Source: Planctomycetota bacterium (GTDB taxonomy: Bacteria; Planctomycetota; UBA1135; UBA2386). Taken from it: 64,000 nt of DNA. This document shows, piece by piece, positions 2,324-58,978 of the stretch. The notes below the pieces were generated by a model. The model was not told where the DNA came from, ran no database searches, and saw only the letters and a program-made list of their open reading frames with translations. Position 1 is the first letter of the stretch, and each line of letters opens with the position of its first letter. Both the position numbers and the translations under genes were made by a program. The stretch is taken from assembly GCA_019636245.1 (NCBI GenBank), contig JAHBXX010000006.1, positions 8,496 through 72,495 of the forward strand. Reading direction: 5' to 3'.

Positions 2324-4825
<2,502 letters not shown>

Positions 4826-6076
4826 GTCGGCCGGCGATTGGCGCGCCGGCCGACGGCGCGTGGGGGAGGCGTGTGCGGCCGAGGCGTCCGCTGCGGGCCG
4901 CCGGCCAGGTCCAGCGGCTGCCGGATGTCAGTTCGCCCTGCTCGACCAGGGGCGAGCAGCTGGCGTGCGACGCCGGCGGTTGTGGCCCGCGCGGTCCGCC
5001 AGCCGCTGTGGCCCGGTCGGCGCTGGCGCCGTCGAGGCCCAGCGCCCCTTCGACGTGCGCCCGCAGCCGGGCGGGGTCGAGTGGTGGCAGGGCCACCGGC
5101 GTCGCGGCCTCGGTGCCGCGCCGCACCCGCACCGCGGCGGCGCGTTCGTCGATCGCCCGTACCCCCGGCAGCGTCGCCGCGAGGTGCAGCGCCACGGCGC
5201 GGCGATCGCCCGCCTCGGCGCCGGTGATCTCGACGTCGCCAGGGGCCGCCGCGGCGGCCGCCACCTCCGGGGCGTAGAGTTGCACGGGGTCGGGCGCCAG
5301 CGCCGCCGCCGACGGCCGGCCGCTGCCGCCGCCGAGGAACTCGAGCGCCGCCTGCGCGTCGGGGAAGCGGCGCTGCGGTCGCCGCGCCACGCAGCGGGCG
5401 ACGAAGCGATCGAACGGCGCCGGCAGGTCGTCGGGCGCGAGTTCGCCCGCGGCGAAGAAGTCCACGCCCGGGAACCGCGCCACGAACTGCGCCAGCGGCG
5501 GGCCGGCGCCCGGCCACAGCGCCTGCGCGGCCATCGCCCCGACCGCGAACAGGTCGGCGCGCGCATCGGGCACGCTGCCGAGCAGCAGCTCCGGCGCGGC
5601 GAAGAACGGCGTGCCGCCGCGACCGGCGGCGCCGCGCCGCGCGCCCAGGCCGAAGTCGAGCAGGTGCAGGCGGCCGTCCTGGCCGCGCAGCAGGTTCGCG
5701 GGCTTCAGGTCGAGGTGCAGCACCGACCGGAGGTGCACGAAGGCCAGCACCTCGAGCAGCTCCTGCAGCGTGCGGGTCAGCGCCGCCGGCTCGCCCGGCA
5801 GGCGGCGCAGCGGTTCGCCGGCGACGTGGTCGCGCAGCACGTAGGCGCGGCCGTCGGGCAGCCGGCCGACCGCGCGCACGGCGGGGATCGCCGGGTGCCG
5901 CACGGCCAGCAGCAGGGCGGCCTCGACCGGCTCGACGCCGGGCGGCAGCAGCTTCAGCACCAGGTTGCCGCGCGTGCGGCAGCGCACGTGCAGCGTCCGC
6001 CCCTCCCCGCCGCCGAGTTCGGCCAGGACCTCGAGCGGAGGACCGGGCAGCGGCGGCAGGTCCCCGGGCGCGTCGT

Positions 6077-7444
6077 TCAATCCTCGCGCACGCGCACCCA
6101 GGTGGCGTCGATCGTGTCGGGGCCGGTGACCGTGCCGCGCCACCAGATGCGGTCGGAGTCGGGCACGATGTCGCCGAGGGGGATCGTCGTCACGCCATTG
6201 CCCTGCCGGGCCCGGCGCTCGATGCGGGTGTCGTCGTCGACCGACAGCACCACCGACGGCACCGACACGCCGTCGATCACGATCGGGTCGTCGTTGCGCG
6301 GCACGACGGTGATCGTGCGGGCCACGGTGTCGACGGCGTCGACGCGGCCTTGCCACTCCGGCTGCATCGGCACGGCGCTGCCGGTCACCTCGACCTCGGT
6401 GGCGACGAACAGCGGCAGTTCGCCGGCCGGCGCGCTGCGCGAGGACCACTTCACCTTGACGAGGTGGCCGACCTGCAGGTCGGCGAAGGCGATCGGCGCC
6501 TGGTTGGGGCGCCGCAGGCGGGCGCCGTCGACGTCGACGCGGATCTGCGCCGGCAGCGGGTTCAGGCGCGGCCCGCCGCGCGGGTTCTGCGCCTGCACGT
6601 CCATCACGAACGTCAGCGTCGTGGGCTCCAGCGCGGCGATGCGGCCGATCAGGCGCGGGTTGTCGTTGCGGCCGCGGCGGTGGGCCTCGCGGGCGACGCA
6701 ACGGCCGTCGCGGCGCAGTTCGCCGCGCACGCGCACGCGGTCGTCGCCGATCTGGTCGAGGAAGCGGTTCGCATCGGTGACGAGGTTGTCGTCGCGGTCG
6801 CGGTAGGCGCAGTCGCCGGCGAACGACACGCGCAGCGGGGCGCGGTCGAGTTCGGCGGCGAGGCCGGTGAAGCCGGGGCGCTCGACGAACGCCACCTGCA
6901 GGTCGTCGAACGCGACCTCGGCGCCGTCGCCGCGCGCGCTCAGCTGCGGTCGCCAGGCCGCGGTCGAGCCGGCGGTCGGGGCCTGGCCGTTGTGGCCGAT
7001 CACGAGCCAGCTGGTGGCGAGTGAACTGTGCAGCAGGCGGTCGGGGATCGGCACGCGTACGTCGACGGTGCCGGTCGCGGGCAGCACGCTGCCATCGGCC
7101 AGCAGGGCGCTGCCGCTGCCGGGCACCAGCAGCAGGCGGATGGCGGCGTATTCACCGGACGGCGCCGAGCGCAGCACCAGGCCGTCGACCGCGCCGGCCG
7201 GGTCGGCCAGCGTGACCAGGTGCGGGTTGGCCAGCAGGTTGCCGGTGGTCGAGCCGTCCGGGTACTCGAGCGCGGCGGCTTCGACCTGGAACTGGATGGT
7301 GACGTCGCTGCCGGTCGCGGTGTCGACGACGACCAGCACGGCGCCGGTGGTGCCGGCCGCGGGGTCGGCGGAGCCGCCGGAACCGCCGCAGGCGGGGAAG
7401 GCGAGGATCGGCAGCAGGGGGAGCAGTCGCAGCAGGTGTCGCAT
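6077..7444 (-). CDS. lipoprotein, hypothetical (possibly DUF4382-like N-terminal half, repeated beta-rich C-terminal half)
   Basis: An internal ATG at 7444 gives MRHLLRLLPLLPILAFPACGGSGG, a signal peptide with a lipobox-like PAC|G. GGAGG lies upstream. The stop overlaps the kinase TTG start. The 72 residues upstream in the track ORF look non-coding. Confidence 0.7.
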   Translation of the reverse strand: MRHLLRLLPLLPILAFPACGGSGGSADPAAGTTGAVLVVVDTATGSDVTIQFQVEAAALEYPDGSTTGNLLANPHLVTLADPAGAVDGLVLRSAPSGEYAAIRLLLVPGSGSALLADGSVLPATGTVDVRVPIPDRLLHSSLATSWLVIGHNGQAPTAGSTAAWRPQLSARGDGAEVAFDDLQVAFVERPGFTGLAAELDRAPLRVSFAGDCAYRDRDDNLVTDANRFLDQIGDDRVRVRGELRRDGRCVAREAHRRGRNDNPRLIGRIAALEPTTLTFVMDVQAQNPRGGPRLNPLPAQIRVDVDGARLRRPNQAPIAFADLQVGHLVKVKWSSRSAPAGELPLFVATEVEVTGSAVPMQPEWQGRVDAVDTVARTITVVPRNDDPIVIDGVSVPSVVLSVDDDTRIERRARQGNGVTTIPLGDIVPDSDRIWWRGTVTGPDTIDATWVRVRED

Positions 7445-7650: not shown

Positions 7651-7749
7651 GGGAGTGCATTAGAGCTGGTGTTCTACCTGGTCTTCAAAACCTGTGGGGG
7701 GTCGCCTCGCGCGGCTCCCGGTGGGTTCGATTCCCATGCACTCCCGCCA
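7651..7749 (+). tRNA. selC: tRNA-Sec (selenocysteine tRNA, anticodon UCA)
   Basis: 99 nt. The acceptor stem is 8 bp (GGGAGTGC / GCACTCCC). The D stem is 6 bp (TAGAGC / GTTCTA) with 4-nt loop TGGT. The anticodon loop CTTCAAA carries TCA at 7685-7687. The variable arm is a long ~9-bp stem. The T arm has loop TTCGATT, followed by discriminator G and an encoded CCA. The 8/5 acceptor/T geometry is the bacterial tRNA-Sec signature. Confidence 0.9.
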
Positions 7750-24559: not shown

Positions 24560-26122
24560 ATGCCGTCGATGTCTCCGGCTCCGTGGTGGCGGCCTGGCTG
24601 GCCCCTGCTCGTCGCGGTGGCGCTGCAGCTTGGCGTGCAGGCCGGACAGCTGCTGCTGACGCTGCGGGCGACCGGCGGCGAACTGGCCTACCCGCTGGAC
24701 GACGCCTACATCCACCTGGCGATGGCGCGCACGCTGGCGGAACACGGCGTGTTCGGCATCACCCCGCACGCCGTCGCCGCCTCGTCGTCGTCCCCGCTCT
24801 GGCTCGGCCTGCTGGCCGCCGGCGCCTGGGCGCTCGGCAGCGCCGTGTGGCTGCCGCTGGCGCTCGCGACCGCGGCGGCGTTGGCGCTGGTGGTCGCGGT
24901 CGATCGCGGCTGGCGGCGCCACGGGCTGGCCGCCGGGTGGCGCGCCGCCGGGCTCGGGGCGCTCGTCCTGCTCGTGCCGCTGCCGACGCTGGCCAGTACC
25001 GGCATGGAGCATGCGTTGCACGCGCTGCTGGCGCTCGGGTTCGTGGCCGCCCTGACGGCGGCCCTCGACGAGCCGGCGCGCGGCGGCCTGCGCCGTGCCC
25101 TGCTGCTCGCGCCGCTGCTCGCCGCCGCGCGGCTCGAGAGCGCCTTCCTGATCGCGCCCGCGGTGTGGCTGGTGGGGCGCCGGCGCGGCCTGTGGCCGGC
25201 GCTCGCGCTTGGCGCTGCCGCCGCGGCGCCGTGGCTCCTGCTCGGCGGGTGGTCGTGGTCCCAGGGCCAGTTCTTCCTGCCGAACTCGATCGTGCTGAAG
25301 AGCGGCCACGTGGCGATCCCCGGCCTGAGCCCCGCCGACCATGGCTGGAGCACGGGCGTGCGCGCCCTGGCCCGCCATGGCCATGCCGGCGTGCTCTTCG
25401 TGCTGCTGGCGTTCGCCGCCTGGCGGTCGCGCGGGCCGGCCGCGGCGCGGCTGCGCCCGGCGCTGGCGGTCGCCCTCGTCGGTCTGCTGCTGCACGCGCA
25501 GCTGGCGCGTTTCGGCTGGTTCTTCCGCTACGAGGCGTACCTGCTGGTCCTGGGGTTCGCCTCGGCGCTGCCGGCGCTGCACGGCGCGGCCACGGGCCTC
25601 AGGCCACGCGGCCGCCGGGCGCTCGCCCTGTTCGCCGTCGCCGGGCTGGCGGCGTTCGTGCCGCGGGCGTCGCGCGCGCTGCGGGATCCGCCGCGGGCGA
25701 GCCGGCACACGTTCCTGCAGAACGTGCAGGTCGCGCGCGTGCTGGCCGCGCATGGCGGCGGCGCCGCCGTGGCCGTGAACGACATCGGCGCGGTCAGCTA
25801 CCTCGGCCGGGTCCGCACCGTCGACCTGGTCGGGCTCGCCGACGTCGAGGTGGCCAGGGCCCGCCTCGCCGGCGCCTTCGACGCGGCCTTCGTGCGGCGG
25901 CTCACCGCGGCGCGCGGCTGCACGCTGGCGGTGGTCTACGAGGACTGGTTCCCCGGCCAGCTGCCGCCGGAATGGACCCGGCTGGCGCGCTGGACCGTGC
26001 CGCAGCCCTACTGGGGCGCCACGGTCAGCTGGTTCGTGATCGAGCCTTCGGCCGCGGGCTCCTGGCGGGCGGCCCTGGACGCGGCGGGGGAGGCCCTGCC
26101 GGGCGGGGTGCTCCGGGACTGA
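24560..26122 (+). CDS. polytopic membrane protein, putative GT-C-type glycosyltransferase with C-terminal soluble domain
   Basis: 520 aa. TM1 is followed by YPLDDAYIHLAMA, a first-loop DD motif typical of GT-C enzymes. About 9-10 further TM helices follow, then a ~130-aa non-membrane C-terminus. Confidence 0.55.
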   Translation: MPSMSPAPWWRPGWPLLVAVALQLGVQAGQLLLTLRATGGELAYPLDDAYIHLAMARTLAEHGVFGITPHAVAASSSSPLWLGLLAAGAWALGSAVWLPLALATAAALALVVAVDRGWRRHGLAAGWRAAGLGALVLLVPLPTLASTGMEHALHALLALGFVAALTAALDEPARGGLRRALLLAPLLAAARLESAFLIAPAVWLVGRRRGLWPALALGAAAAAPWLLLGGWSWSQGQFFLPNSIVLKSGHVAIPGLSPADHGWSTGVRALARHGHAGVLFVLLAFAAWRSRGPAAARLRPALAVALVGLLLHAQLARFGWFFRYEAYLLVLGFASALPALHGAATGLRPRGRRALALFAVAGLAAFVPRASRALRDPPRASRHTFLQNVQVARVLAAHGGGAAVAVNDIGAVSYLGRVRTVDLVGLADVEVARARLAGAFDAAFVRRLTAARGCTLAVVYEDWFPGQLPPEWTRLARWTVPQPYWGATVSWFVIEPSAAGSWRAALDAAGEALPGGVLRD

Positions 26123-26154
26123 AGCGCGGCGGCGCGAGGCCGGGCTGCCGCCTG

Positions 26155-26198
26155 AAAAAAAGCGGGCCTCGGTGAGGCACCACCCCACACCGAGGCCC
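26155..26198 (-). terminator. canonical rho-independent terminator (minus strand)
   Basis: Minus strand has an 11-bp perfect stem, GGGCCTCGGTG (26198->26188) with CACCGAGGCCC (26174->26164), and a 13-nt loop. GC and T7 (26161->26155) follow. This is the only 7-nt A/T run I noticed in the window. Confidence 0.8.
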
Positions 26199-26241
26199 AT
26201 CCCTGCCACTGGGCCCATGCCCAGGCGTTTCTTTCCACCGG
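26155..26241 (-). ncRNA. candidate sigma-54-dependent small RNA (~85 nt; 5' end estimated)
   Basis: Bracketed by the sigma-54 promoter at 26250..26266 and the terminator at 26155..26198. It contains an A-rich stretch (GGAAAGAAACG) and a hairpin CTGGGC-ATGG-GCCCAG. No ORF with a stop lies before the terminator, local GC drops, and no downstream gene lies on this strand. Confidence 0.5.
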
Positions 26242-26249
26242 CCCCACTC

Positions 26250-26266
26250 AAGCATGCGCCGTGCCA
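26250..26266 (-). promoter_or_regulatory. sigma-54 (RpoN) -24/-12 promoter candidate, orphan
   Basis: Minus strand reads TGGCACG-GCGC-ATGCTT. Against TGGCACG-N4-TTGCW it has exact GG-N10-GC spacing and only the first T of the -12 box mismatched. It lies in the 300-nt gap between convergent genes. Confidence 0.6.
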
Positions 26267-26358
26267 CTGCGGCCAGAATTGCCCGGGTTCTCGCAAGGCG
26301 ATGCCCAGCAAGGGAATGCAGCACGAGCCCGAGTTCGGCGGCTGGCCCGCCGCCCGCC

Positions 26359-26405
26359 GCCGTCGACGGCTCGCCACGGGATGCCGACGCCGCTGACGGC
26401 ATCCC
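26359..26405. promoter_or_regulatory. two palindromes ~95-140 bp upstream of the orphan sigma-54 promoter (possible activator binding sites, or a mazG 3' hairpin)
   Basis: GCCGTCGACGGC (26359-26370) is a perfect 12-nt palindrome. GGGATGCCG-N10-CGGCATCCC (26378-26405) has perfect 9-bp arms. Confidence 0.3.
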
Positions 26406-26423
26406 GACGGGGCGCCGCCGGCG

Positions 26424-27242
26424 TCAGCCCCCCGACCCGCCGGCGCGGCTCGCGGCCTTGGCGCGCTCCCAGGCGGCATCGAGTTCGGCCAGCGAACGGC
26501 CGCCGAGGTCGTAGCCGAACTCGGCCTCGATGGCGGCGAAGCGCTGCTGGAACTTGTCCGTGGTCGCCGCCAGCGCGACCTCCGGATTGACGCCCAGATG
26601 GCGGGCGAGGTTGCACAGGCTGAACAGGGCGTCGCCGAGTTCCTCGGCGATCGCGGCCGCCTCGCCGCCCGCGATCGCGGCGTCGAGTTCGCCCAGTTCC
26701 TCGTCGAGCTTCCCGCGCGGCCCGCGGCGGTCGGGCCAGTCGAAGCCGGCGCGGGCCGCCTTCTCGCCGACGCGGAACGCGCGCAGCAGCGCCGGCAGGG
26801 CGACCGGCACGCCAGCGAGCGCGCCGCGCCGGCCGTCGCCGGCCTCGGCGCGCTTGGTGCGTTCCCAGTTGCGGTAGGCCTGCTCGGCGCCGTCGACCTT
26901 CTGGTCGCCGAACACGTGCGGGTGCCGCCGCACCAGCTTGGTGGCGGCCGCGGCGGCGACCGCGTCGACGGCGAAGGCGCCGCGCTCGCCGGCGATCTGG
27001 CCGATCATGGCGACGTTGACCAGCACGTCGCCGAGTTCCTCGCGCGCGGCGGCGTCGTCGCCGCGCCGCAGCGCGTCGGCGGCCTCGAACGCCTCCTCGA
27101 CCAGGTGCGGTGCCATCGAGGCCGTGGTCTGCTCGCGGTCCCACGGACAGCCGTCGGGGGCACGCAGACGGGCGATCGTCGCCAGCAGGTGGCGGATCCC
27201 GGGCAGGTCCGCGGGCGGTCGGTCGCAGGGGTCGTCGGCCAT
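26424..27242 (-). CDS. mazG: nucleoside triphosphate pyrophosphohydrolase MazG (tandem MazG domains)
   Basis: ATG at 27242 gives MADDPCDR.... Motifs seen: CPWDREQT, EEAFEAADA, ELGDVLVNV, RRHPHVF, and in the second domain EELGDALFSLCNLARHLGVNPE. Confidence 0.9.
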   Translation of the reverse strand: MADDPCDRPPADLPGIRHLLATIARLRAPDGCPWDREQTTASMAPHLVEEAFEAADALRRGDDAAAREELGDVLVNVAMIGQIAGERGAFAVDAVAAAAATKLVRRHPHVFGDQKVDGAEQAYRNWERTKRAEAGDGRRGALAGVPVALPALLRAFRVGEKAARAGFDWPDRRGPRGKLDEELGELDAAIAGGEAAAIAEELGDALFSLCNLARHLGVNPEVALAATTDKFQQRFAAIEAEFGYDLGGRSLAELDAAWERAKAASRAGGSGG

Positions 27243-28017: not shown

Positions 28018-28377
28018 GTGACCTCGCATCGCAAGCGCAAGCAGAAGGCCCAGGCGCTGGGCCTCACCGCGGCCGAACTGCAGCTCTGCGAGCTGCTCGG
28101 CCAGGTGCTCGAGCTGCTGCGCTGGAACCAGGTGCTCGGCTACAGCAACCAGTACCTGCTGCACGAGCGGCTCGGCGTGCCGGCCGAGGAACGCCACCGC
28201 GTGATGCGCGCCGCCGCCGGCGCCGTCGAGCAGGATGGCCGCATCCAGGACTGGGGGCGGCGCCTGCTCGAGATCCAGGACGCGCTCGAACGCATCCAGG
28301 CGCGCCTGCAGGGCAACGACGGCGGCAGCGGCCATGGCAGCGGCAACGGGGCGGCGGAGGGCGCGCATGGCGGCTGA
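28018..28377 (+). CDS. hypothetical protein (119 aa)
   Basis: GTG start with strong G/C third-position bias throughout. The N-terminus is basic and the tail is Gly/Ser-rich. Its end overlaps the next gene by 11 nt. Confidence 0.55.
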   Translation: MTSHRKRKQKAQALGLTAAELQLCELLGQVLELLRWNQVLGYSNQYLLHERLGVPAEERHRVMRAAAGAVEQDGRIQDWGRRLLEIQDALERIQARLQGNDGGSGHGSGNGAAEGAHGG

Positions 28378-56950: not shown

Positions 56951-58978
56951 ATGACCGCGTCCACCTCGTTCGCGCCGCCGCCGCCCCTGTCGCCGTCCGG
57001 CCTGCGGGTGGCCGCGCTGGCGGCGCCGCTGCTGGCCGCGCTGCTGGCCTACGGCGGCGCGCTCGGCGGCGAGTTCGTCTACGACGACCACGGCGCGGTC
57101 GCCGGCAACCCGCGGCTCGAGGCTGGGGACTGGTGGGGCATGGCCTTCGGCCCCGACCACACCCCGCTCGCCAACCGCCCTGTCGCCTGCCTGTCGTTCT
57201 GCCTCGACCGCGCGCTGGGCGGCCTCGATCCGGGCTGGCTGCGCACGGGGAACCTGGTCTGGCACCTGCTCTGCACCGGCCTGGTCTTCTTGGTCGTGCG
57301 CGGCGCGCTGCGGGCACCGAACCTGGGCGGCCGGTTCGGCGCCGCGGCGGCCACCGCCGTCGCCACCACGGTCGCGACGCTGTGGGGCAGCCACCCGCTC
57401 GGCGCCGAGGCGGTCGCCTACGTGACCCAGCGCAGCACGCTGCTGATGGCGGCGGGGTTCCTGCTGGCGCTGCTGGCGGCGCTGCGGCACGCGGCGACGG
57501 CCCGGCGCCGCTGGCGGTGGGTCGCCGTGCTGGCGCTCGCCGCCGGCATGGCCAGCAAGGAGGACCTCGTCGCTGGCCCGCTGCTCTACGTGCTGTTCGA
57601 ACGCGCGTTCGTGCACCCGTCGTGGCGGGCGATGCGGCCGCACCTGCCGTTCCTGCTGGCGATCGCCGGCACCTGGACGGTGCTGGCGGCCTGCGTGGGG
57701 CTCGGCCCGGCGAACGTCACGGTCGGCTACGGCGCGGTGGTGCCGGTGACCGCGTTCGAGTGGCTGTACACCCAGGCGGGCGTCGTGCTGCACTACCTGC
57801 GCCTCGCCATCTGGCCGGTGGGCCTGTGCACGGTCTACGACGGGCCGATCGTGCGCGACCCCGGCGCGGCGGTGCTGCCCGGCGTCGCCGTGCTCACGCT
57901 CTTCGCGTTGGCCGTTCGGCAGTGGTTCGTGCGACCGTGGCTCGGCTGGCTCGGCGCGCTGTTCTTCCTGCTGCTCGGGCCGACGTCGAGCGTGCTGCCG
58001 ATCGTCACCGAGGTGGCGGCGGAGCGGCGCATGTACCTGCCGCTGCTGGCCGTGCTGATGGTCGTCGTGCTGGCGGGCCGTGCGGCGATCGGACAACTGG
58101 CGGCGCGGGCGGGTTTCGCGCCGCGCGGCGCCGCGGTCGCCGGCGGCGTCGTCGCCGCCGTGGCGGCGGCGCTGCTGGTGGCGGCGACCCGGGTGCGGGC
58201 CCTCGACTTCACCAGCCTCGAACGCTTCTGGGGCAACGCCTACGCGCACTGCGATCCGGGCCGCGGCAGCCTGCTCACCGCTTCGATCCTCTCCGGCCAG
58301 GCGCGCGTGCTCGACCGCCGCGGGGACGGCGAAGGCGCGTTCGCCCTGCTCGAGCAGGCGATGCGCTGCGAGGCCCGCATGGCGCCGGTCGGCATGAACT
58401 ACGCGGTGGCGCTGCGCGCCCGTGGCCGGCTCGCCGAAGCCGAACGGGCACTGCGCGGCGTGCTGGCCGACTTCCCCGATTTCGCGCCGGCGCTCGGCGG
58501 TCTCGCCGCGGTACTCGTCGATCGATTCGAGCAGGACCTGGCGCGCGGCGCTGCCGCCGCCGGCGACGCGCGCCTCGCCGAGGCGCTCGAACGCACCGAC
58601 CGGGCCTACCGCATCAGCCCCGACCCGCAGTTCCTGAACACCCGCGGCATGGCGCTGTGCCGGCTCGGGCGCTTCGACGAGGCCGAGCGCGTGCTGCGCC
58701 TGGCGATCCTGCAGAGCCCCGGCTACAGCGATCCCTACCAGAGCCTCGGCGCCGCGCTGCTGTTCGCCGGTCGCCCGCGCGAGGCGATCGAGGTGTGGCG
58801 GCGGGCGCTGCCGCTGCGGCCGGACGACGCCGGCCTGCGCATGAACCTCGTCGCCGCCTGCCTGCAACTCGGCGAACGGCGCCTGGCGCGGGAACTGCTC
58901 GCCGAGGTGCGGCGGCTCGATCCGACCCACGCCGAAGCACAGCGGCTGTGGCTCGAACTGGAGGTCGAGGGGCGATGA
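56951..58978 (+). CDS. TMTC/PMT-like GT-C membrane protein fused to C-terminal TPR repeats (675 aa)
   Basis: TM1 is followed by GEFVYDDHGAV, a first-loop DD motif. About 10 TM helices follow (MASKEDLVAGPLL, SSVLPIVTEVAAERRMYLP), then ~250 aa of TPR. Confidence 0.75.
   Translation: MTASTSFAPPPPLSPSGLRVAALAAPLLAALLAYGGALGGEFVYDDHGAVAGNPRLEAGDWWGMAFGPDHTPLANRPVACLSFCLDRALGGLDPGWLRTGNLVWHLLCTGLVFLVVRGALRAPNLGGRFGAAAATAVATTVATLWGSHPLGAEAVAYVTQRSTLLMAAGFLLALLAALRHAATARRRWRWVAVLALAAGMASKEDLVAGPLLYVLFERAFVHPSWRAMRPHLPFLLAIAGTWTVLAACVGLGPANVTVGYGAVVPVTAFEWLYTQAGVVLHYLRLAIWPVGLCTVYDGPIVRDPGAAVLPGVAVLTLFALAVRQWFVRPWLGWLGALFFLLLGPTSSVLPIVTEVAAERRMYLPLLAVLMVVVLAGRAAIGQLAARAGFAPRGAAVAGGVVAAVAAALLVAATRVRALDFTSLERFWGNAYAHCDPGRGSLLTASILSGQARVLDRRGDGEGAFALLEQAMRCEARMAPVGMNYAVALRARGRLAEAERALRGVLADFPDFAPALGGLAAVLVDRFEQDLARGAAAAGDARLAEALERTDRAYRISPDPQFLNTRGMALCRLGRFDEAERVLRLAILQSPGYSDPYQSLGAALLFAGRPREAIEVWRRALPLRPDDAGLRMNLVAACLQLGERRLARELLAEVRRLDPTHAEAQRLWLELEVEGR

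Follow-up and report, generated by a model that had tools for sequence, protein, structure and literature searches.

A 64-kb stretch of Planctomycetota DNA (contig JAHBXX010000006.1, positions 8,496 to 72,495, 73.8% GC; hereafter the window, meaning the whole of the DNA analyzed) carries, in the 300-base gap 3' of its mazG gene, what is on comparative grounds an ~86-nt gene for a new family of structured noncoding RNAs, which to date has turned up only within a clade of uncultured high-GC Planctomycetota. We put the probability that this is a stand-alone small RNA (sRNA) gene with a sigma-54 promoter of its own at roughly 0.8. A first-pass annotation of the window had proposed here a sigma-54-dependent, independently transcribed sRNA of ~85 nt ending at an intrinsic terminator, and both computable tests that it named, a scan against Rfam and an alignment of related loci, support that proposal. 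The promoter, the A-rich stretch, the two hairpins and the terminator are all present on the minus strand where the annotation had placed them, and the parts of the candidate gene, together with an array of repeats upstream of it, are as follows.

26155 to 26241, minus strand: candidate sRNA gene, predicted transcript ~26240 to 26155 (86 nt), scoring 111.9 bits (E 3e-33) against a covariance model (R1) built from 14 relatives; the only copy in the window
26266 to 26250, minus strand: predicted sigma-54 (-24/-12) promoter cagTGGCACGGCGCATGCTTgag (also written TGGCACGGCGCATGCTT and TGGCACGGCGCATGCT), with one mismatch to TGGCACG-N4-TTGCW
26225 to 26239, minus strand: 5' segment GGUGGAAAGAAACGC, unpaired in the consensus structure from the alignments, its core GGUGGA conserved nearly family-wide
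26224 to 26209, minus strand: hairpin 1, CUGGGC-AUGG-GCCCAG, differing in sequence and length among relatives with its pairing kept
26208 to 26199, minus strand: unpaired linker UGGCAGGGAU, the longest invariant block of the RNA
26198 to 26155, minus strand: intrinsic terminator, an 11 + 3 bp stem with one bulge, then GC and U7; 12 of 14 pairs covary
26411 to 26360, minus strand: array of CCGWCGG-like sites, a candidate enhancer (upstream activator site) spanning roughly -120 to -171 relative to the predicted start

Conservation and fold of the RNA

When the whole intergenic region was compared by blastn with 80 mazG loci, the only part to match was 26265 to 26154, which did so in all 13 of the closest planctomycete relatives at 75-93% identity. 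Mean identity to the window is 90% for the RNA, against 75% for mazG DNA and 57%, the alignment background, for the intergenic flanks; sodB DNA, itself highly conserved, reaches 89%. The relatives are themselves uncultured high-GC Planctomycetota, the best of which has a MazG protein 84% identical to that of the window. Searched with R1, the first 45 sources gave 40 copies, exactly one per locus in 40 loci, with 26 of the loci having been added through a metagenome pattern scan whose pattern was fixed in the terminator loop. A more distant set of ten loci, taken from contigs of MazG homologues 60-73% identical to the L014 protein, yielded 13 further copies at 26-109 bits with every locus positive, bringing the total to 53 copies in ~50 related uncultured Planctomycetota sequences, 45 of which enter the final alignment (A3). 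The same model found nothing in more than 60 nonplanctomycete mazG loci except two scores below 15 bits with E above 0.1, and no further copy in the window, where its other matches reach at most 14 bits. Copy number varies as well: tandem pairs of diverged copies lie between mazG and apbE in three genomes (L107, 3568-3659 and 3845-3940; L110, 3822-3912 and 4123-4216; L111, 3482-3572 and 3791-3883), each copy with its own GG-N10-GC promoter and the second copies sharing a distinct 5' end (GGUGGAGUAGAGAUGC).

The alignments support a fold of two hairpins. In a 14-sequence alignment the MAFFT/RNAalifold consensus has 99% of cells paired, versus 32-56% with slid partners, and in A3 the figure is 97.5% versus 36-54% in the slid controls, with compensatory change in 17 of 22 pairs (84 cells), spread over both hairpins, and none of 500 shuffles reaching any of these measures. 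Since A3 was fitted to the covariance model its structure is somewhat favored there, and the independent MAFFT/RNAalifold result agrees with it. The inner five-pair helix of hairpin 1 shows compensatory changes at four of its five pairs with 98% of cells paired, around a loop that is not conserved. G.U pairs are frequent in A3, reaching for example 33-36 of the 45 copies at two positions, and would be A.C on the opposite strand, which assigns the RNA to the minus strand, that of the promoter and the U-tail.

The 86-nt RNA is predicted to fold at -45 kcal/mol (z -3.3 versus shuffles), and a 96-nt stretch likewise folds better than its shuffles (z -2.6). The terminator contributes a perfect 11-bp stem, GGGCCUCGGUG/CACCGAGGCCC (26198 to 26164), with three further inner pairs, followed by GC and by U7 at 26161 to 26155; its 14-bp stem gives -29 kcal/mol for the 45-nt segment ending at the U-tract. 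The first-pass annotation had remarked on the rarity of this run, and it is indeed the sole T7 run in the window, where 0.04 are expected; a window-wide scan, moreover, found no other hairpin with a U-rich tail in the 64 kb. Across the family the GC-rich hairpin directly precedes a U-tract of at least four residues in all copies but one (L113, which ends GUUU). Folded as the covariation shows, the RNA has its 5' tail and its linker unpaired on either side of the variable hairpin 1 and closes with the terminator hairpin. A processing stalk pairing the sequence just 5' of the predicted start with that just 3' of the U-tract is striking in L009, L010 and L011; with a mean z of -0.5 and 6 of 34 loci below -1.64 it is not a feature of the family.

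Which parts of the RNA are held constant depends on how far the comparison reaches. Nearly the whole RNA is conserved in the close clade, the terminator loop GGGGUGGUGCCUC included (the minus strand of the window also carries GGAAAGAAACG between the promoter and hairpin 1). In divergent members the sequence of the two hairpins and of the loop is free to vary, and the unpaired GGUGGA and the linker GUGGCAGGGA persist. The linker core GGCAGGGA is invariant in 44 of the 45 aligned copies (the exception reads GACAGGGA), and most copies keep the longer GUGGCAGGGA. Both blocks contain GGA, and hairpin 1 holds them close together. Sequence invariance throughout the family is thus restricted to these two unpaired segments, which are likely to be the functional surfaces of the molecule.

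The same alignments leave a next to negligible probability that the locus encodes a small protein. Long minus-strand open reading frames do cross the region (26025 to 26402 and 26008 to 26247), and in some relatives a GGUGGA resembling a Shine-Dalgarno (SD) sequence precedes an ATG. Such frames are expected at 74% GC, however, and no start codon is conserved; indels of 1 nt and changes of 1-10 nt in hairpin length shift every frame, substitutions track base-pair covariation rather than codon positions, and the frame passes through the terminator without a stop codon.

No known RNA family was found at the locus. Rfam 15, run on the window at the gathering threshold, returned nothing at the sRNA and a sole match elsewhere, a selenocysteine tRNA at 7651-7745 on the plus strand (tRNA-Sec, 77 bits, E 4e-14), which implies that this planctomycete uses selenoproteins. 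At E of 10 or less, positions 26050-26500 gave noise only (E of 0.78 or more; best mir-1228, 20 bits versus a threshold of 88), and seven divergent loci had no match at E of 0.1 or less. A search of the literature on noncoding RNA in these lineages found none.

Promoter, upstream array and sigma-54 machinery

In the window the sRNA promoter has GG at 26265-26264 and GC at 26253-26252, that is GG-N10-GC, and this arrangement is kept in all 51 copies for which upstream sequence is available (38 of 38, then 13 of 13 divergent ones), so that the -24/-12 boxes are co-conserved with RNA and terminator in every relative. The first 38 copies read GGCA[CT]-N6-TGC in 36 cases and GGTAC-N6-TGC in two; the consensus is YGGCACG-N4-(G/C)TGCW, with GGCAC and TGC essentially invariant by position and the 6-nt spacer and both flanks variable. 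From the end of TGC to the first conserved base of the RNA there is a constant 9-11 nt in every copy. Placing the C of GC at -12 sets the predicted +1 at ~26240, which is where sequence conservation starts, and the observed offset is what the ~11-12 nt between the -12 GC and a transcription start would predict for this computed 5' end. As judged from such conservation, the sRNA probably has its own sigma-54 promoter.

The window by itself would not have supported this conclusion. The first-pass annotation had reckoned with well under one chance match and with two matches found, both intergenic, whereas TGGCAC-N5-TTGCW with at most one mismatch occurs three times against 1.32 expected, a number equaled in 16 of 100 shuffles. 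One of the three, at 57260-57275, lies within an open reading frame and is taken as a chance occurrence. The promoter is therefore at chance level when judged from the window and becomes significant only through its conservation.

Between the mazG stop codon and the promoter, the loci carry four to seven CCGWCGG-like sites. Successive CGWCG cores stand exactly 11 bp apart in 38 of 131 pairs (29%), versus 22 of 2519 (0.9%) in the background, and the sites concentrate at -220 to -110 across loci with the quasi-palindromic consensus gCCGACGGc. Where mazG is distant, missing or separated from the RNA (L012/L097, L087, L093, L113), the RNA still has its array, which is present in divergent loci too; elsewhere in the window no triple-site match to it was found. 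An enhancer would be expected to lie at such a distance and to repeat in this way on one helix face, and we take the array as a candidate binding site for the activator. Between array and -24 box, at about -45, an A-tract, CGAAAAATC(C/G), is often seen (for example in L007, L008, L009 and L010), though weakly in the window (GAGAACCCGG). It might act as an intrinsic bend or as a site of IHF type and so aid contact between enhancer and promoter.

Taken together, these elements suggest how the RNA would be made. Sigma-54 RNA polymerase would bind the -24/-12 promoter at 26266 to 26250. Promoters of this class stay closed until an ATP-driven enhancer-binding protein opens them, and that activator most likely sits on the CCGWCGG sites, one helical turn (11 bp) apart and 110-220 bp upstream. 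The RNA would accordingly be produced only in response to a specific signal. Transcription would end at the hairpin and U7 of the terminator, which read-through transcripts from mazG probably use too.

Sigma-54 machinery is represented in the window by two features.

4825 to 2324, minus strand: enhancer-binding protein of TPR-GAF-AAA+-HTH_8 architecture (Sigma54_activat E 5e-66, HTH_8, intact GAFTGA motif)
2240 to 2225, minus strand: second -24/-12 match, TGGCACGACCCTCGCA, ~85 nt beyond the enhancer-binding protein stop codon; the ATG of an open reading frame with a signal peptide follows ~45 nt later

By the evidence of this protein and its intact GAFTGA motif, the genome probably uses sigma-54. 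The first-pass annotation had rightly seen a sigma-54 activator here, though not with its proper limits: it gave 2324 to 6080, and the reading frame is 4825 to 2324 on the minus strand. A Pkinase domain (Pfam, E 9e-15) lies just upstream at ~5516-5915 on the same strand in another frame, and kinase and activator are either two adjacent genes or a frameshifted fusion of a Ser/Thr kinase with the activator. The second match looks like an ordinary sigma-54 promoter of a protein gene, that of a secreted protein starting at ~2180 on the minus strand (MHTTLVPILCLLTTSFAA...), and is possibly a target of the neighboring activator. It has no CCGWCGG array, and there is thus no evidence that this activator controls the sRNA, a link that had been implied from its location 20 kb away.

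Neighboring genes and competing accounts of the locus

The genes that flank the element are those of the first-pass annotation, and two smaller features lie among them.

27242 to 26424, minus strand: mazG, a nucleoside triphosphate pyrophosphohydrolase gene (Pfam MazG, E 1.4e-30), the same-strand upstream neighbor of the sRNA
24560 to 26122, plus strand: open reading frame of 520 aa, convergent to the sRNA, with no Pfam match
26405 to 26378, minus strand: 9-bp hairpin GGGAUGCCG/CGGCAUCCC with no U-tract, just past the mazG stop codon and overlapping the repeat array
26209 to 26236, plus strand: terminator-like site from the terminator scan, the complement of hairpin 1 followed by GCGUUUCUUUCC, which would serve the convergent gene 24560 to 26122

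In most loci, including those found by the RNA pattern alone, a same-strand MazG gene ends ~180-340 nt before the RNA. Exceptions are L113, an 8-Mb genome in which the RNA follows an unrelated 712-aa gene with mazG 2.3 kb away, and L012/L097, L087, L093 and L095, in which other genes stand between mazG and the RNA; promoter and array are kept in the latter. L012 and L097 carry, ~690-1031 nt upstream of the sRNA, an open frame of 113 residues (~73 aa from its Met) that is AbrB/MazE-like (MELKLRKIGNSYGVILPAEVLKAL...). On the other side, a convergent TPR-lipoprotein gene ends 11-180 nt past the 3' end of the RNA in most relatives, as part of a widely conserved convergent TPR-lipoprotein/ApbE/NqrF cluster, and the window has an extra gene, that of the 520-aa multi-pass membrane protein (24560-26122), between the TPR-lipoprotein gene and the sRNA. 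The 9-bp hairpin after mazG, for which Rfam gives only spurious microRNA noise, may stabilize or weakly terminate the mazG mRNA.

Several observations weigh against a stand-alone sigma-54-dependent sRNA. The chance-level promoter match in the window has already been mentioned, and the window's own array is less regular than that of most relatives. The invariance of the terminator loop is, in the metagenome-derived loci, a matter of construction, because the pattern that retrieved them fixed that loop. Neither rpoN, csrA nor hfq was found in the window or in the planctomycete loci examined, no activator gene adjoins the sRNA in any locus examined, and when the window was searched for the 5' motif, the linker and the loop in reverse complement, nothing matched besides the gene itself. 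The RNA also lies almost always just 3' of a mazG gene on its own strand, and read-through from mazG could yield some of it. (In many of the alphaproteobacterial mazG loci, namely L018, L023, L026, L038, L048, L051, L058, L061, L065, L068 and L078, mazG does have an hfq gene at a distance of 1.3-3.7 kb, in some cases as two neighboring Hfq-like matches; these are unrelated to the planctomycete element.)

This last point leads to the account in which the element is a promoterless mazG 3' untranslated region (UTR) and terminator, or a fragment processed from it, with GGCAC-N6-TGC conserved for some other reason. In its favor are the near-constant position of mazG and the fact that in the window no canonical terminator, just the hairpin without a U-tract, lies between mazG and the element. 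L014, a distant relative, furthermore has directly after mazG (4853-4939, plus strand) a 17-bit look-alike consisting of GUGGUGAAGACACGC, a hairpin, GCGGAAGGGAAC and a terminator (z -5.4), which lacks sigma-54 boxes and carries one of the two motifs only. We leave this element outside the family; it may represent a 3'-UTR version of the RNA, degenerate or ancestral, or a plain terminator, and like the other observations just listed it counts against a stand-alone gene. Against the UTR account, the conserved block holds the exact sigma-54 core elements in 51 of 51 copies as its surroundings drift, and conservation sets in at the predicted +1 and not at the mazG stop codon, the 150-200 nt between them standing at the 57% background. 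Promoter and array are kept in the loci with intervening genes (L012/L097, L087, L093, L095) and in L113, and second tandem copies bear boxes of their own. We consider a promoterless 3' UTR improbable.

The location between convergent genes in most relatives invites another interpretation, that of back-to-back terminators with no functional RNA. It would account for the plus-strand terminator-like score of the hairpin 1 complement with GCGUUUCUUUCC and for the ability of the A-rich 5' tract to pair with the U-tail. Terminators, however, are not normally 90% identical beside coding DNA at 75%, and what is invariant here is the unpaired GGUGGA and GUGGCAGGGA, whereas the stems drift and covary. 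Divergent members lose the U-richness of the plus strand (GGUGGAGUAGAGAUGC) and retain GGUGGA, and the -24/-12 boxes and the upstream array would be left unexplained. This makes a pair of bare terminators a very remote prospect, although the plus-strand site may add to the selection on the A-rich tract within the close clade.

Nor do we see much likelihood in a role confined to cis, in which the RNA would pair or collide transcriptionally with the 3' end of a convergent mRNA, that of the TPR-lipoprotein/apbE/nqr genes in most relatives and that of the 520-aa membrane protein gene in the window. The convergent TPR-lipoprotein/ApbE/NqrF arrangement is widely conserved, and a plus-strand transcript ending at 26209-26236 would be fully complementary to the sRNA. 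The convergent gene varies, however: besides the 520-aa insertion in the window, L003, L087 and L093 share an unrelated neighbor, and L012, L109 and L113 each have another. An antisense RNA, moreover, would not need the invariant unpaired motifs, which are yet its most conserved part, and the upstream member of a tandem pair cannot overlap a convergent 3' end. A stand-alone sRNA gene with its own sigma-54 promoter thus remains our preferred reading of the locus.

Possible mode of action and comparison with known systems

As a stand-alone sRNA, the molecule would most likely regulate in trans through its two purine-rich motifs, GGUGGA and GUGGCAGGGA. Base-pairing, the commonest mechanism of sRNAs, would here be directed at pyrimidine-rich mRNA sites and fits the free 5' end and the U7 tail; we favor it tentatively, at somewhat under even odds. 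A U7 tail and conserved unpaired stretches, which an Hfq-dependent base-pairing sRNA would be expected to have along with targets, are present; no complementary site was found in the window, nor hfq in the window or the planctomycete loci examined. Two candidate interactions were rejected. Pairing with the neighboring sodB in the manner of RyhB, scored as duplex energy over the -100 to +30 region in 24 loci, was no better than in shuffles (z ~0). A search for recurrent 9-mer complementarity across loci gave one recurrent match, of 14 nt, inside the coding sequence of the small gene downstream of sodB (GLTEAE, GGCCTCACCGAGGCC), which in several loci reproduces the terminator's 3' arm exactly and in the window has one mismatch; we judge it coincidental, as the terminator arm is locked in its own stem and the match is interrupted in the window. 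The small gene is a conserved open reading frame of 110-131 aa with no Pfam match (VTSHRKRKQKAQALGLT(E/A)AELQLCELLGQVLELLRWNQVLGY...), at 28018-28377 on the plus strand in the window, and the match falls ~70 nt into it.

The RNA could instead act on a protein, an alternative that concerns its action and is compatible with the proposed account of how it is made. A GGA-binding dimer of CsrA type would be sequestered through GGUGGA and CAGGGAU, relieving CsrA-repressed mRNAs whenever the activator fires. The two unpaired GGA blocks are the only family-wide invariant sequence, and GCAGGGAUG resembles the CsrA core from systematic evolution of ligands by exponential enrichment, which is reportedly CARGGAUG. 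Both motifs are also purine-rich and SD-like, an uncommon trait in seeds that act by blocking ribosome-binding sites, and the tandem copies recall the RsmX/Y/Z families. The known sponges, however, carry 5-22 GGA motifs, mostly in loops, against two per RNA here, neither of them in a hairpin loop; the loop of hairpin 1 is variable and without GGA, and at the first site the A normally present two bases 5' of GGA is missing. No Rfam CsrB/Rsm model matches, and the negative search for csrA in the window and the planctomycete loci bears on this idea as well. CsrA orthologues, paired with FliW, have been reported in Planctomycetes (PMC4682653). On balance we hold a CsrA sponge to be possible but rather doubtful. 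In such a case each RNA would grip a single CsrA dimer with the two GGA blocks that hairpin 1 holds together. CsrA in Planctomycetota is not known to be controlled by anything other than FliW, and it is an unlikely, if attractive, extension that the RNA is the first sRNA antagonist of a CsrA-type regulator outside the Proteobacteria, tied to a sigma-54 activator through the periodic array.

Set beside known systems, the planctomycete RNA is a new family and an example of an established kind of regulator, with no new principle involved. Regulatory RNAs of Planctomycetota are essentially uncharted, and with this family the sRNAs under sigma-54 control, few as they are, would extend to a further phylum. 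A close parallel in layout is with Qrr1-5 of Vibrio, which depend on sigma-54 and LuxO: the gene is of ~100 nt, has a -24/-12 promoter, an upstream activator site, a candidate one in planctomycetes, and an intrinsic terminator, contains an invariant unpaired stretch, and occurs in one to several copies among genomes. There is no similarity to Qrr in sequence or structure (no Rfam match), the phylum is another, the invariant motifs in planctomycetes are purine-rich GGA blocks, and qrr1 adjoins luxO, whereas the planctomycete sRNA has no adjoining activator gene. Pxr of Myxococcus xanthus is a small structured RNA with a sigma-54-type promoter and an NtrC-like regulator, from a high-GC, nongammaproteobacterial lineage rich in enhancer-binding proteins. 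It too differs, in that no homology is detectable, the planctomycete fold consists of two hairpins with a free 5' end and linker, and the synteny is not the same. GlmY/GlmZ (sigma-54 and GlrR) and CrcZ/CrcY (sigma-54 and CbrB) are controlled by sigma-54 and an activator, as is proposed here, and since some of them titrate a protein (RapZ, or Hfq/Crc) they offer a precedent for the protein-decoy alternative; they are larger, carry other motifs (A-rich CA in CrcZ) and have well-defined inverted-repeat activator sites in place of the one-turn periodic array that is the candidate site here.

With CsrB and RsmX/Y/Z the family has in common exposed invariant GGA motifs, one of which (CAGGGAUG) is close to the CsrA consensus, and gene duplication within families. 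Those RNAs have promoters of the GacA/UvrY-sigma-70 type, in contrast to the sigma-54 type of the planctomycete gene, in which there are two GGA motifs only and none in a loop. Type I 3'-UTR sRNAs such as DapZ and MicL resemble it in lying 3' of a same-strand protein gene with an alternative-sigma promoter of their own, here a predicted one, and a probably shared terminator; the planctomycete promoter, unlike theirs, is intergenic, past the stop codon, and in several genomes the module is not tied to mazG. The complete module, from the putative enhancer array through the sigma-54 promoter to the 86-nt RNA backed by covariation, can be put to the test, and the two invariant motifs can seed searches for targets or partners. 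Its carriers belong to widespread freshwater, soil, wastewater and marine lineages, and the covariance model can be used to annotate the RNA in metagenome-assembled genomes.

The array itself can be compared with the tandem sites of PilR type, several of which stand in direct orientation, about one helical turn apart, ahead of a sigma-54 promoter. Here four to seven short sites ~11 bp apart lie on one helix face, at enhancer distance from the -24/-12 promoter. The site sequence is different, CCGWCGG and quasi-palindromic, and the conserved 11-bp periodic array offers a route to an uncharacterized enhancer-binding protein and to the signal that it senses.

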